From sequence record NC_054909.1: DNA of 64,000 nucleotides; one strand, 5' to 3'. The notes under the pieces were generated by a model. That model had not been told where the DNA came from, made no database searches, and saw nothing but the letters and a program-made list of their open reading frames with translations. This DNA comes from Escherichia phage EC121. Made by a program: the position numbers and the translations under genes. Positions 169 to 4,345 of the stretch are shown one piece after another (the first letter of the stretch is position 1; each line of letters begins with the position of its first letter).

Positions 169-1851
169 TTAAACCATTACAGTAAATCGACCAACTTTCT
201 TCATTTGAAGATGCTGACCGTATTCTTGCGGGTCATGGTCTTTATGCGAAATTATAAAAACATTAGTGTTTTTCATTGAATTTATAATATTAGCTACACC
301 TTTAATACCTTCGGCATCAAATGACCCATCAAACACTTCATCGAGTATTAATGTACTAATACTAACACCAGATACAATAGAAGCAATATCACGCCAAGTA
401 AATAAAAGAGCAATATCAATTCTTGCTTTTTCACCTTCACTAAATGAAGCATAACTAAAATCTTCGCGACCACGGGATTTAATTGTCTCATTAAATTCTT
501 CATCTAATGTAAACACATAATCCGCTTCCATTATTTTAAGATAATGGTTAATCTGCTTATTAAATAATGGAATGTACTTTTTAATAATAGCACCTTTAAT
601 ACCAGAATCTTTGAGCATATCAGTCAAAATTCCTCGGTGGTATTTTTCCATTACTAAATTAGTTTTTGTCTTAACAATTTTATCAAGTTCTTCTTGAAGC
701 AGTGCTATTTCATCAGCATGGTCAATAAACTCAGAAGATGCTTTTTCTATAGCCGCTTTAACCTTTTTAGCTTTATCTACTGTCGTGATTAGAGATTGCT
801 TTTTATTGCGAATATCATTTGCCAACGACTGTTGGGTTTTAATATTATCTCGGTATTCATCAACAAGAACTTTTAAATTATCACGATGCGTTGAAAGCTG
901 CTCAAACGAATGCGTGCATTCAGAAACTTTATCTTTAATTTTAGAAACAACTTTATCACCGGAACTCAATTGTGACAAACAGGTTGGACATAATCCACCT
1001 TCGTGATACATATTAATGACTTTATTATACGAGTCAATTTTCGATTTAATTAAAAATGCTTCTTGGCCGATTTTATTAAATGCATCAGTCGGGTCTTCAT
1101 CCAAAACAATATTAACTAATCTTTCATTAGCTTCTTCTATTTCCGATTTTAGCGTTCTAGCTTCTTTTGCTAAATCATCATACATATTTTGCAGACGAGT
1201 AAGGTTGTCACCCGTTAATTTTTTCTGGCGTTCAACGTTATCATTATATATTTTAATTTGTTGGATAATATTATCTTTTTTAACATCAAGCACCTGGTTC
1301 TGCGAATTTAATTCACGTATTAGTGCTTTATTAAGCTTATCCATTTCAGCTAATGTTCCTACCTCAAGCAGGTCTTCCACAAGCTTTCTTCGCGCAGGGG
1401 TCGACAAACCCATGAAAGGGGTATACCCTGCTGTACCAAGGACAACAATCTGCTTGAAACTGGCATATGACATTCCGATAAGCTGTTCAAATTCTGCTTG
1501 GAAATCTTTACTGCTGGCAGATTCATTAAGACGTGTACCGTTAACGGTGATTTCGAAAACGTTTGGTTTTTGTCCTCTTTTGATATAGTACTTTTTCTCA
1601 TCATATTCCATCCACAGTTCAACTAAAAGTTCTTTCTTATTTGTGCTGTTTATTAATTGACCTTTCTTTACATCACGAAATGGCTTGCCAAAAAGCCCAA
1701 ATGTGATGGCTTCTAGCATAGTAGACTTACCACCGCCATTTCGTCCAGTAATAAGAGTTTTTTGAACCTTATCTAATTGAATGTCAACTCCATTTTGACC
1801 AACTGACATTATATTTTTATATTTTACTCTATTAAGTTTAAATGATTTCAT
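169..1851 (-). CDS. 46: recombination endonuclease subunit gp46 (Rad50/SbcC-like ATPase)
   Basis: 560 aa; Walker A GRNGGGKST near N-terminus, long coiled-coil, C-terminal ABC-type motifs; T4 gene order and length. Confidence 0.95.
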   Translation of the reverse strand: MKSFKLNRVKYKNIMSVGQNGVDIQLDKVQKTLITGRNGGGKSTMLEAITFGLFGKPFRDVKKGQLINSTNKKELLVELWMEYDEKKYYIKRGQKPNVFEITVNGTRLNESASSKDFQAEFEQLIGMSYASFKQIVVLGTAGYTPFMGLSTPARRKLVEDLLEVGTLAEMDKLNKALIRELNSQNQVLDVKKDNIIQQIKIYNDNVERQKKLTGDNLTRLQNMYDDLAKEARTLKSEIEEANERLVNIVLDEDPTDAFNKIGQEAFLIKSKIDSYNKVINMYHEGGLCPTCLSQLSSGDKVVSKIKDKVSECTHSFEQLSTHRDNLKVLVDEYRDNIKTQQSLANDIRNKKQSLITTVDKAKKVKAAIEKASSEFIDHADEIALLQEELDKIVKTKTNLVMEKYHRGILTDMLKDSGIKGAIIKKYIPLFNKQINHYLKIMEADYVFTLDEEFNETIKSRGREDFSYASFSEGEKARIDIALLFTWRDIASIVSGVSISTLILDEVFDGSFDAEGIKGVANIINSMKNTNVFIISHKDHDPQEYGQHLQMKKVGRFTVMV

Positions 1852-1866
1852 TTTGTATCCAATTGT

Positions 1867-2721
1867 TCACAATGAAGAAAATTCTTTAACTAAAGCCTGT
1901 AATGAAGCCTCTATTGGATATCCATTCTTAACTAACATTTTCCTAAACATTACATGTTTAGGACGATTATATGATATCCACAATTCATACAATTTATCTT
2001 TATTATCCCAATGATAGCCTTTTCGTCGAGATGCTATATGAGCTTTTCTAATCTCCGGATTTTTCCAACTAGCAGCTACTGAATTTGATATAGCTATTTT
2101 ATATTCAGGTTTTGATAAAGCAGCACGAACAGCCTTTTGGTGTTTAATTTTATTTTCTTCGTTATTAAACCATTCCCTTGAAGCCATTGAAATTTTTTGT
2201 TTTGTTTTAAAATTATTTAATCTTTCTTTATTATCTTTCCTATTTTTTGCTACTGAAAAATATTTTAATGCCCTTTCTCTAGCAGCATTTCTATTTTGCG
2301 GATTTGAATAATACTGTTGAAGCCTTTTTGATATTGTGTCACTTACATCTTGTTTTATAAAACTATATTCAGCAGCTATTAAATCAACTTCGGCTAAAGA
2401 TAAATTTTTATATGTTTTTCCTGACATCATTCTATTTAAAGCATTTAACATTTTTCCATTTTTACCTTTTGCTAATAAGAAGTGTGCTTTAAAATGATTA
2501 AAATGACTTAAATTAACTAAATTCCATGTAGATTTTAAATATTCAGGAAATATTGATTTAGGAAGCACGTGGTGTGCTTCCGTTTTACCTGGAGTTTTAA
2601 CAGTTGAATTCACAGAAATAAAATTAATGTAAGACTTGGCGTCTTCTTCACTCAACGCTAATTTTTCAACTAATTCCTTTATTAAAAATTCATCATTAAT
2701 GTCAAGTTTAAAATTCTTCAC
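1867..2721 (-). CDS. free-standing HNH-family homing endonuclease (mob-like)
   Basis: 284 aa; HH..N..H motif (AHHVLPKS...NLVNLSHFNHFKAH) followed by basic NUMOD-like repeats. Confidence 0.75.
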   Translation of the reverse strand: MKNFKLDINDEFLIKELVEKLALSEEDAKSYINFISVNSTVKTPGKTEAHHVLPKSIFPEYLKSTWNLVNLSHFNHFKAHFLLAKGKNGKMLNALNRMMSGKTYKNLSLAEVDLIAAEYSFIKQDVSDTISKRLQQYYSNPQNRNAARERALKYFSVAKNRKDNKERLNNFKTKQKISMASREWFNNEENKIKHQKAVRAALSKPEYKIAISNSVAASWKNPEIRKAHIASRRKGYHWDNKDKLYELWISYNRPKHVMFRKMLVKNGYPIEASLQALVKEFSSL

Positions 2722-2981
2722 AAAAGATTCCTTTTAATGTATCTTTTAGACCATTCTATCATATCATCATAATCTAAAAAGTATTCATCAAATTCAGCCA
2801 TGCAAACAACACCTTGTGCTGCTTTTGATGTGATATAAATTATTCCAACATATCTAGAATCTTCTTCGGTATAATCAATATTTGCTATGAATTCATCGTT
2901 AATGTCAAATGTCGAAAACTTCACAATATGCATCCTTAATACAAGATACAGCCATATCTTGTAATGATTTAGGTGTGTCAT
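2718..2981 (-). CDS. hypothetical small protein; true start probably internal
   Basis: ORF with stop overlapping HEG start; N-terminal segment shares DINDEF motif with the HEG. Confidence 0.45.
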   Translation of the reverse strand: MTHLNHYKIWLYLVLRMHIVKFSTFDINDEFIANIDYTEEDSRYVGIIYITSKAAQGVVCMAEFDEYFLDYDDMIEWSKRYIKRNLL

Positions 2982-3168
2982 TATCTAAAATGTTGAAGTT
3001 AAAAGATACAGCCCAGTCAGTGCAGACCGTAACCTTTTTAATACAATTATCTTCAACCTCTAGCGGTTCAAACCAATATTCAATAATTTCTTTATGCCCA
3101 ATATCATCTTTTACTTCGCATTCAAAATGCTGACTCATCATAACATTTTTAAATTCATCAAAAGTCAT
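2905..3168 (-). CDS. hypothetical protein (87 aa)
   Basis: ORF whose start overlaps gene 47 stop by 4 nt. Confidence 0.55.
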   Translation of the reverse strand: MTFDEFKNVMMSQHFECEVKDDIGHKEIIEYWFEPLEVEDNCIKKVTVCTDWAVSFNFNILDNDTPKSLQDMAVSCIKDAYCEVFDI

Positions 3169-4184
3169 TGTGTTGCCTCTACATATAGCTGATTCGCATA
3201 TTGAATAAGTGCTTCACGGTCAGAATCAGTGATGTCTGGAATTGCATTAATGTATTCTTCCATCAACGTCTGAAGAGATTGAACTTCAACTTCTTCACTG
3301 TCATCTGACTCGACAGAGTTATCAATCTTTGACACAACTCGTAACGAATGCACAACTTTTTCTAGTTCAGATTCGAACTTCGTCAGATTTTTGTCTACTT
3401 CAGTTACTATAACACGTACTGATAGATTTGTAAAATCTTTATAGTCAATTTTTCCCTTAAATGGATATTGAATTCGACGATGCCAGGTAGTGTTGTTTGG
3501 AATAAATTCCATTCGTTCTGTTTCTGTGTCAAACATCCAGAACCCACGAGGGTCATTCTCGTCACCTGCAGTTAGTGTCCATGGTGTCCCAATATATCTG
3601 ACGTTTGCAGCCTCAGAAATAGTATGGAAGTGACCAGACCACACTTCTTTATAAGTCTTAAGGAAATCAGGTTCAAGACCGTGAGATTTCATTCCTTTAT
3701 AAAAATAAAATCCATTCAGTTCCCAGTGACCAACACAAAAAGAAGCAGATGAAGTTTTGATGTGTTCAAGAATTTCACCAGTATTTTCTTCGCACATCCA
3801 AGGAATTAAATCAATCAAACACCCGTCAAAATCTACTGTTGTAGGCTTATCATATACTTTAACATTAGGATATTTAGCCAAAAGCTCAGTAGAGGCATTT
3901 GGATGCATTACATTTTTGTAGTGGAGATCGTGATTTCCTACAATAGTATGTAGGGTAATACCAGCACCATCAAGCATTTGAACTATTTCACGGGCAAACT
4001 CCATAGTTTTATGCGTGATCGCTTTTCGCACATCAAAAATATCACCGTATTGAATCCATACCGTAATTCCATTTTTCTTAGAATATTCTATCGCTTGCTT
4101 AATTCCATCAATTTGAATACCGCGAATCCACTCATCATCAGCTTTAACGCCTAAATGCCAATCACCTAAATTTAAAATTTTCAT
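3165..4184 (-). CDS. 47: recombination nuclease subunit gp47 (Mre11/SbcD-like phosphoesterase)
   Basis: 339 aa; calcineurin-like motifs GDWH, GDIFD, GNHD; adjacent to gene 46. Confidence 0.95.
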   Translation of the reverse strand: MKILNLGDWHLGVKADDEWIRGIQIDGIKQAIEYSKKNGITVWIQYGDIFDVRKAITHKTMEFAREIVQMLDGAGITLHTIVGNHDLHYKNVMHPNASTELLAKYPNVKVYDKPTTVDFDGCLIDLIPWMCEENTGEILEHIKTSSASFCVGHWELNGFYFYKGMKSHGLEPDFLKTYKEVWSGHFHTISEAANVRYIGTPWTLTAGDENDPRGFWMFDTETERMEFIPNNTTWHRRIQYPFKGKIDYKDFTNLSVRVIVTEVDKNLTKFESELEKVVHSLRVVSKIDNSVESDDSEEVEVQSLQTLMEEYINAIPDITDSDREALIQYANQLYVEATQ

Positions 4185-4345
4185 ATATCAAGAACCGTCA
4201 TTGAAATGCAAAATAAAATTATTGAAATAAATCCATCTGGAGTGCTAAAGAACCCAATCCAACATGCTCTAGTGAATAGATAAAATGCAAGAAAAAGTAT
4301 CACATATCCAAGAAATATCATTATATCAAACTCCGTATAAAGCTA

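Follow-up and report, generated by a model that had tools for sequence, protein, structure and literature searches.

Gene layout of the 46–47 interval

The window, by which we mean the whole 64,000-nucleotide stretch of Escherichia phage EC121 analysed here, is from a Tequatrovirus of the T2/T6/PP01/RB51 type, and the stretch is 98–99% identical to those phages. On the minus strand, the gene order is 47, 46.2, 46.1, a 284-aa ORF and 46. Gene 47 (3165..4184), which encodes an SbcD/Mre11-like recombination nuclease subunit, is a 339-aa ORF that matches the annotated gp47 of T4, T2 and T6. It is followed by gene 46.2 (2905..3168; Pfam T4_Y03C, E 1e-43), so named in the T4 annotation. Gene 46 (169..1851) encodes the SbcC/Rad50-like subunit of the recombination nuclease; it starts at ATG 1851 and is 560 aa long as in T4. 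An earlier note on this DNA had placed the 284-aa ORF between genes 46 and 47, which is correct and can be made more precise: it lies between 46.1 and 46, at 1867..2721, with a GTG start that overlaps the stop of 46.1 (GTGA).

The small gene 46.1 (2718..2924) encodes a DUF5487 protein. Pfam PF17589 matched with an E-value of 2.1e-48, its profile positions 1–66 corresponding to residues 20–85 of an 87-aa ORF that is the ATG-extended reading of 46.1. Since the match begins at residue 20, which is the GTG of the T4 annotation (207 nt), the start of 46.1 is most likely GTG 2924 (2924-2922, with a Shine-Dalgarno sequence AAGGA at 2937-2933) and not ATG 2981. Orthologs are present in RB69 and S16, and all 35 clusters of the DUF5487 (gp46.1) family come from T-even relatives (at least 59% identity).

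The 284-aa ORF encodes a putative Mob-class homing endonuclease

The 284-aa protein matched PHROG 655 ("homing endonuclease") with an E-value of 7.8e-45 over residues 1–282 and PHROG 12434 ("HNH endonuclease") at 4e-15. In tblastn, the ORF matched genes annotated mobD (3e-13 to 2e-11) and MobE-like genes (2e-7). The protein is 100% identical to a cluster of 85 member sequences, and the RefSeq label of the ORF is "homing endonuclease". As part of the explanation favoured below, we regard the ORF as probably an intact member of the T4 Mob (HNH) class of free-standing homing endonuclease genes, MobD-like in character.

In an HNH motif, a His (or His-His) ends the first strand, an Asn lies in the hairpin and a His in the helix that follows. 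In the catalytic motif EAHHVLPKS...WNLVNLSHFNHFKAH, residues H50, H51, N67, H76 and H80 are invariant in 10 family members, and the AF2 model of residues 1–120 (pLDDT 83) has strands at 47–51 and 68–72 and a helix at 73–86 that bear these residues. Family alignment and AF2 together predict a beta-beta-alpha (HNH) core at residues 47–84 (EAHHVLPKS...WNLVNLSHFNHFKAHFLL; 2470..2583, minus strand). Fold searches with the full model and the N-domain model returned no HNH match, phmmer against PDB sequences matched no chain, and searches of Pfam and NCBIfam gave no HNH or NUMOD model at E ≤ 1; the curated HNH profiles (Pfam HNH, HNH_3 and similar; NCBIfam) did not reach E ≤ 1 in nine relatives either. 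Atypical phage HNH endonucleases diverge from profiles (PMC10448857), which weakens a profile-based claim but not a motif-based one. The description of the protein as HNH in the earlier note is thus borne out by the invariant motif and by family membership, on which the putative assignment rests, but not by the profiles.

The C-terminal half of the protein is predicted, at low confidence, to be helical. It holds three degenerate repeats, IS-x5-[YW]-x-N-[PE]-[QE]-x-[RK], at residues ~130, 177 and 210 (pairwise E 0.005), so that the NUMOD-like repeats of the earlier note survive as three weak internal repeats but without a NUMOD profile match at E ≤ 1. Relatives P0038-40 stay below the gathering score in their matches to I-HmuI_NUMOD-like and NUMOD1, and the NUMOD3 threshold is passed only by the paralog of Acinetobacter phage ZZ1. 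I-HmuI is an intron-encoded HNH nicking endonuclease with NUMOD-type DNA-binding modules. The window protein may resemble it in general architecture, with a modelled N-terminal HNH core followed by helical repeats that would bind DNA. With respect to the I-HmuI modules, relatives at 29–35% identity give sub-threshold Pfam matches whereas the window protein gives none; also unlike I-HmuI, its gene is free-standing, and it matches no PDB sequence and nothing in the fold searches.

The insert interrupts the first codons of gene 46 and appears to swap translation starts

Alignment with T4, which does not have the ORF, revealed an 870-bp insert (1901 versus 1031 bp) at 1834..2703, in keeping with the insertion junction that had been suspected here. 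A 9-bp perfect direct repeat, TTTAAACTT, flanks the insert at 2712-2704 and 1842-1834 (minus strand), and the boundary is ambiguous within this repeat. Over the whole of gene 46 codons 1–6, the two copies flanking the insert are 13/18 identical.

In T4, gene 46 begins with GTGAAGAATTTTAAACTT joined directly to AATAGAGTA. An AAGGA Shine-Dalgarno sequence precedes its GTG, which shares bases with the stop of 46.1 (GTGA), and T4 record M10160 states "g46 (gtg start codon)". In the window, this resident gene 46 start (2704..2733) heads the endonuclease ORF: the Shine-Dalgarno sequence AAGGA is at 2733-2729, the GTG at 2721-2719, and codons 1–6 read MKNFKL. The head of the ORF, AAGGA-N8-GTGAAGAATTTTAAACTT, agrees base for base with T4 gene 46 as far as AAACTT. 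The order in the window is therefore resident gene 46 bases 2733-2704, then a 19-mer discussed below, then the endonuclease body. The comparison with insert-free phages that the earlier note had proposed gave the same boundary in a phage collection: with a query across the left junction, 446 endonuclease-free records align to 2705 or 2704 and end there. All 70 endonuclease-positive records match at least 80% of the query length, and none of the relatives carried the arrangement in an unduplicated form.

At the other end, the ORF stop at 1867 is followed by a 15-nt spacer, ACAATTGGATACAAA (1852..1866), after which gene 46 resumes as ATGAAATCATTTAAACTT joined to AATAGAGTA. The spacer, which was probably brought by the inserted cassette, supplies a replacement Shine-Dalgarno sequence for gene 46 (GGA, 1860-1858), so that the current arrangement of the gene 46 start is GGA-N6-ATGAAATCATTTAAACTT. 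Codons 1–6 (1834..1851) are recoded relative to the resident GTGAAGAATTTTAAACTT (MKSFKL versus MKNFKL), and the first 15 nt of the recoded codons equal the gene 46 start of RB69. When the spacer start region was aligned with other gene 46 start regions, the resident tequatrovirus one scored lowest (−2) and the endonuclease-linked one of Salmonella phage Melville highest (17), with RB69 at 11. This likeness to the Melville start region and not to the resident one indicates that the new gene 46 start, including the recoded codons, came with the insert. The endonuclease appears to have taken the resident gene 46 start while gp46 received a new one, so the two translation starts would have been swapped: the endonuclease would be translated from the former gene 46 start and gp46 from a start region delivered by the element.

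Our main reading, to which we assign a probability of roughly 80% as a whole, is that gene 46 in a tequatrovirus of the T2/T6 type took up a Mob-class homing endonuclease gene within its first codons. The mobile cassette would consist of the endonuclease body, a substitute Shine-Dalgarno/ATG for gene 46 and variant gene 46 codons 1–22. At its left end it joins, in frame, the initiation region (AAGGA-N8-GTG) and codons 1–6 of the resident gene 46, which are followed by a 19-nt filler from codons 6–12 of 46.1.

The 12-codon leader of the endonuclease is a probable mosaic of two resident genes

Within the 64 kb of the window, the pattern TTGACATTAAYGATGAATT has exactly two matches (minus strand, 2908-2890 and 2705-2687), where 0.05 would be expected by chance; none of 100 shuffles gave two. 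Start-region DNA is thus indeed shared with the upstream small ORF. Copy 1, TTGACATTAACGATGAATT (2890..2908), runs from the end of codon 6 to codon 12 of 46.1 (F-DINDEF) and copy 2, TTGACATTAATGATGAATT (2687..2705), over the same codons of the endonuclease (L-DINDEF); counted from the GTG-AAG start, both begin with the final two bases of codon 6. Within the window the copies are 18/19 identical, and the endonuclease copy matches 46.1 of T4 and T6 at 19/19. That such a resemblance arose by chance might be entertained, given AT-rich DNA and a peptide made of common residues (D, I, N, E and F), but the shuffles, the full identity to T4 and T6 and the common codon register leave this explanation with a negligible probability, and we rejected it. 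Past codon 12, in-register DNA identity drops to 24/84, against a background of 23.5 ± 4.3.

The earlier note had compared KNFKLDINDEF of the endonuclease with KFSTFDINDEF of the small ORF and proposed that the 5′ end of a resident gene had been recruited or duplicated by the endonuclease gene at an insertion junction. Read as recruitment from 46.1 alone, this is half right. The 19-mer and DINDEF (codons 7–12) are common to both genes in register, and there is a precedent in that the paralog of Escherichia phage G2469 (Mosigvirus) replaces 46.1 yet truly begins with the first 7 codons of the local 46.1, MTKTDYE. However, the Shine-Dalgarno sequence, the GTG and codons 1–6 belong to the downstream gene 46 in every endonuclease-free tequatrovirus (18/18 identical, versus 12/18 for 46.1). 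Moreover, 46.1 is intact and is not a target duplication flanking the insert; the direct repeat that does so is the TTTAAACTT of the gene 46 start. The resident 5′ end used by the endonuclease therefore appears to be that of gene 46, and recruitment from 46.1 as a complete account is already contradicted by the T4 alignment; we consider it quite improbable.

The converse possibility is that DIN(DEF) was native to the endonuclease, and that 46.1 either gained it by short-patch gene conversion or is itself a relic endonuclease gene. Two distant paralogs of the Mob class, in Shigella phage GT and Acinetobacter phage ZZ1, begin M/V-DIN, so part of DINDEF could be endonuclease-native, and a diverged lineage (L014) has NLD in place of DIN at these codons of 46.1. 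Against this, the 46.1 orthologs align residue by residue (T4-type ..TFDINDEFIA.., RB69 ..EFSIGDGYIG.., S16 ..EFNLGNGWYG..), with the pattern F-x-[IL]-x-[DN]-x-aromatic kept in RB69 and S16. This position-by-position alignment of DINDEF with SIGDGY and NLGNGW argues that the segment is native to 46.1. The closest paralogs of the endonuclease (44% identical) do not have the leader and, counting to the invariant Tyr31, the window protein has ~10 extra N-terminal residues relative to its paralogs. Beyond residue 12, BLASTP similarity to 46.1 is weak, and the endonuclease matches members of its own family instead. Independent SNPs in the two 19-mer copies (T2, SYGD1 and the window) also rule out ongoing gene conversion between them. 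We treated the M/V-DIN starts of the two distant paralogs as coincidence, and regard an endonuclease origin of DINDEF as no likelier than recruitment from 46.1 alone.

A third alternative is that the 19-mer is a functional element kept twice, whether promoter, translational operator, RNA structure or conserved protein motif. It begins with TTGACA and lies at an equal distance from two GTG starts, each of which overlaps an upstream stop. Nevertheless, the RNA folds of all three start regions were no more stable than shuffles (z −0.48, +1.28 and −0.37), and promoter-like sites occurred at chance frequency, with none called at either copy. The gene 46 start of T4 works without the 19-mer, which is also absent from the new gene 46 start region and from the paralogs. 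A functional element thus seems very unlikely, more so than either of the two preceding alternatives. The absence of DINDEF from paralogs likewise rejects the 19-mer as a conserved protein domain, including one of an unrelated family. The rejected ALTERNATIVES for the 19-mer were, in all, RNA structure, promoter, conserved protein domain, ongoing gene conversion and chance. An extended homology between 46.1 and the endonuclease ("EED..Y", BLASTP E 4e-4) was dismissed as well; the first 12 residues drive its score.

We conclude that the 12-codon leader is a probable mosaic of two resident genes, with codons 1–6 from gene 46 and codons 7–12 (DINDEF) apparently copied from 46.1. Copy 1, which lies at positions that 46.1 orthologs conserve in three genera, is the likely source, and copy 2, which is absent from endonuclease paralogs, is best seen as junction filler derived from 46.1. 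The alignments in this way show the insert with its boundaries and where each piece of the leader originated.

How the pieces came together can be envisaged in more than one way. The GTG-AAG start regions of 46.1 and gene 46 are similar (GTGAAG plus 6 of the 12 following bases), which makes microhomology available for an illegitimate join, and the chimeric leader may be the scar of such a join between the two starts. Along one route, the element would first have replaced the body of 46.1, like the Mosigvirus paralog, and would later have recombined with the gene 46 start. Along the other, 19 nt would have been copied from 46.1, 203 bp upstream, as templated filler during break repair. Both possible routes fit the data. 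Searches of IMG/VR, JGI metagenomes and GTDB genomes with exact patterns gave 0 matches to an intermediate that joins 46.1 codons 1–12 to the endonuclease without the 46.1 body, and 0 matches to the 5′ end of the endonuclease gene in any other setting. In the phage collection, the 70 close copies are all found in a single context. Scanning IMG/VR for the family recovered distant Mob relatives only, and a word-indexed protein search found six relatives, none at 35%–99% identity, so that this search gave no intermediate lineage.

The insert is patchily distributed and has moved between backbones

The insert is present in 70 of ~516–519 tequatrovirus records, which are otherwise collinear, and always at one site with the same junctions. 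Such patchy presence and absence at a single site is the distribution that a homing gene would have. Frameshifts disrupt the copies in T2, RB51 and RB68, and decay of this kind is expected late in the homing cycle.

A metagenomic contig (L017) carries the element in another background. It is 95–100% identical to Mosigvirus G2469 except for a 1.04-kb patch that is 98–100% identical to window positions 2785-1772, with partial identity back to ~2845. The patch takes in ~100 bp at the end of 46.1, the endonuclease gene with the new start region after it, and ~80 bp at the beginning of gene 46; as it enters 46.1, the 46.1 of L017 is a chimera. The contig shows transfer into a Mosigvirus backbone with flanks of ~100 bp and ~80 bp. 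Together with the decayed copies in T2, RB51 and RB68, it supports mobility of the element. Phage Ac3 was considered as a carrier of an older copy and set aside: its 90% protein identity reflects codon-optimised-looking DNA and not natural divergence.

The closest paralogs, 44% identical over residues 16/24–281, lie directly 5′ of gene 46. Such gene 46-adjacent paralogs occur in 10 of 163 Mosigvirus genomes and 5 of 16 Gelderlandvirus genomes.

A likely target and immunity site lies in a variable patch of gene 46

Just downstream of the insert, a 47-nt patch of gene 46 varies among tequatroviruses whose surrounding sequence is at least 98% identical. The endonuclease-linked variant begins at the third base of codon 6 and ends with codon 22 (1786..1834, minus strand), and three alleles were distinguished. 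Allele B (RB3 type, NRVRYQNIMSVGGNPID) is found in ~351–366 records, all without the endonuclease gene, and allele A (T4 type, NRVKYKNIMSVGQNGID) in ~68 records, also without it. Allele C (..QNGVD) is found in 69/69 natural endonuclease-positive records. The same division extends beyond the genus: endonuclease-free RB69, S16 and STML-198 read YQNIMSVGG(N/S)P, and endonuclease-positive G2469 and Melville read Y(K/S)NIMSVGQ... Four nucleotide positions, in codons 12, 17 and 19, fully split positive from negative genomes in three genera, and patch differences within a genus end at codon 22.

Codons 6–22 of gene 46 are thus a likely target and immunity site, although the argument is from linkage and the patch could be a mere hitch-hiker. 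The enzyme would recognise the conserved B-type sequence and nick or cut endonuclease-free gene 46 alleles within codons ~11–21 (TAYCARAAYATNATGTCRGTRGGYGG), and recombinational repair would then copy in the endonuclease gene along with the resistant patch carried by the cassette. T4 carries an endonuclease-linked variant (allele A) without the endonuclease gene. It might owe this allele to an insert later lost between the 9-bp repeats, or else to conversion over a short tract. Alleles A and C differ by two SNPs, so allele A is not a simple recent deletion derivative.

Taken together, these patterns allow a broader but tentative reading, to which we give somewhat less than an even chance: the 5′ end of gene 46 would be a cross-genus homing site used by two diverged Mob-type lineages. 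The enzyme would target codons ~11–21 of the common allele (YQNIMSVGG[NS]P), and the cassette would bring a resistant allele (Y[KS]NIMSVGQ..) together with a spare start region for the essential gene. The resistant allele of T4 would be the footprint of a past invasion or of partial co-conversion, and the 12-codon leader the fossil of a microhomology-guided or templated join between neighbouring translation starts. If this reading is true, L017 documents homing between phage genera, for which convincing evidence has been lacking (Petrov et al, 2010; PMC2993671).

Relation to known homing systems

Free-standing homing endonucleases shape the mosaicism of T-even phages and partial exclusion between them. 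To our knowledge, MobE is the only Mob-class member that has been studied. The T4 genes mobA–E are free-standing HNH homing endonuclease genes (Edgell et al, 2010, PMC2988022; Wilson & Edgell, 2009, PMC2790892). The window endonuclease resembles them in class, with tblastn matches of the mobD and mobE type and an HH..N..H core, and in being free-standing, beside or inside a conserved essential gene and sporadic among T-even phages. Here as for mobE, the start codon overlaps the upstream stop (GTGA here, UAAUGA for mobE; PMC2988022), which suggests translational coupling. The loci differ, however (46.1/46 here, nrdA/nrdB for mobE and nrdC.11/mobD.1 for mobD), and the window endonuclease is only ~30% identical to MobD. 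Unlike the T4 Mob genes, it appears to have drawn its first 12 codons from two resident genes and to have given its neighbour a new start region.

Intronless homing in T4 is exemplified by SegF (genes 56/69) and SegG (gene 32) (PMC2988022, PMC2993671). As with these, a free-standing gene adjoins its presumed target gene and would spread with co-conversion of flanking markers. Target differences protect the host allele in SegF and SegG; gene 46 codons 6–22 may serve the same purpose here. The Seg enzymes are of the GIY-YIG and not the HNH type, and their cleavage sites and marker exclusion have been shown experimentally, whereas ours are inferred from comparative genomics.

The nearest known systems are the paralogs of Salmonella phage Melville (Gelderlandvirus) and Escherichia phage G2469, which also have gene 46 as their neighbour and a variant patch of this kind at its codons ~10–22. 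The G2469 type likewise starts with resident codons (46.1 codons 1–7). The differences lie at the junctions. The 3′ ends of the Melville and G2469 genes overlap the gene 46 start by 14 nt, in contrast to the 15-nt spacer of the window, and their left junctions also differ from the one described here. G2469 replaces 46.1 and Melville both 46.2 and 46.1, whereas the window keeps both small genes.

Petrov et al (2010) count one "other HNH" each in T2, T6 and RB51 (PMC2993671), and our literature search found no paper on the endonuclease element beyond this count. The element is thus already annotated but uncharacterised, and it is of a known and ordinary mobile kind; the junction is instructive, its insertion scar being unusually easy to read, and involves no new principle. 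The useful details are the start-region swap, the probable two-gene mosaic leader, the three-genus pattern of putative target and immunity, and the possible footprint in T4, by which the reference phage carries an element-linked allele without the element. They predict precisely where, within an essential Rad50-like gene, a Mob enzyme would have its target and immunity site. They also offer what would be a clear natural example of a selfish gene within the first codons of an essential gene that is rendered harmless through a swap of translation starts.

The insertion also bears on the annotation of the gene 46 and 46.1 starts. Both are annotated inconsistently between records, and in T2-type genomes the annotated "gene 46 start" is that of the endonuclease.

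Gene 46 alleles and the state of the endonuclease gene

Codons 6-22 of gene 46 (window 1786-1834) occur as three alleles with sharp bounds among approximately 516 tequatroviruses, and the DNA flanking this patch is at least 98% identical. The RB3 type accounts for about 70% of these phages and the T4 and endonuclease-linked types for 13% each. The endonuclease-linked type is also present in the reference phage T4 (L001), which has no endonuclease gene. The intact 284-aa endonuclease gene is found in T6, PP01 and the window. In T2 it is split by a frameshift into two ORFs of 615 and 258 nt, and in the RB51 and RB68 records the match to it is broken into two pieces; these classical strains therefore carry decayed copies.

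Mosaic boundaries in other lineages

L017, a 45-kb metagenomic contig (Logan ERR10686928; region 3001-4200), is a Mosigvirus genome in which 46.1 is chimeric, with an N-terminal half of RB69 type and a C-terminal half of T4 type; the endonuclease gene of tequatroviruses comes directly after it. This arrangement is apparent cross-genus homing. L014 (IMG/VR UViG_2706795408, 2900-3300) belongs to a diverged T-even lineage whose genes 47 and 46.2 are very different and whose 46.1 has a different N-terminus (MMKTFEFNLDDEF). It is ~100% T4-like between 46.1 codon ~10 and the start region of gene 46 and diverges again within gene 46, a further mosaic boundary at this locus.

Phage Ac3 (L027, GenBank OK040907.1) differs from the window at 328 of 1371 columns, at nearly each third base, yet protein identity is 90% despite these DNA changes. 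The altered stretch (about 1201-2300 and beyond) starts at codon 1 of the endonuclease gene, which is GTT in place of GTG, spans that gene and extends into gene 46, whereas the sequence upstream of it is ordinary T4-type. Nearly all changes are towards the C/G-ending codons preferred by E. coli, including at least eight serine switches from TCN to AGC. The stretch looks like a synthetic codon-optimised sequence, which would make Ac3 either a chimeric assembly or a phage that was engineered.

Start annotation and minor features

Public records (L018, L020, L021, L022 and L023 against L001 and L019) are inconsistent in the start of gene 46, given as GTG codon 1 or as an internal ATG at codon 15, and in that of 46.1 (207, 216 or 264 nt). 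The conservation of MK(N/S/T)FKLNRV between genera that use differing codons for it supports the upstream start of gene 46. In the endonuclease-free phage EH2 (L023), the 46.2/46.1 region has about 79 additional bases (about 776-899); BLAST returns the match as three pieces spanning 1110 rather than 1031 bp, and the annotation gives 46.2 as truncated.

Within the endonuclease gene, an inverted repeat with a perfect 9-bp stem (GGAAGCAC GTG GTGTGCTTCC, window 2561-2581) coincides exactly with the codons of the catalytic EAHHVLP motif. A scan rated it terminator-like for the non-coding (plus) strand, and it may be due to chance.
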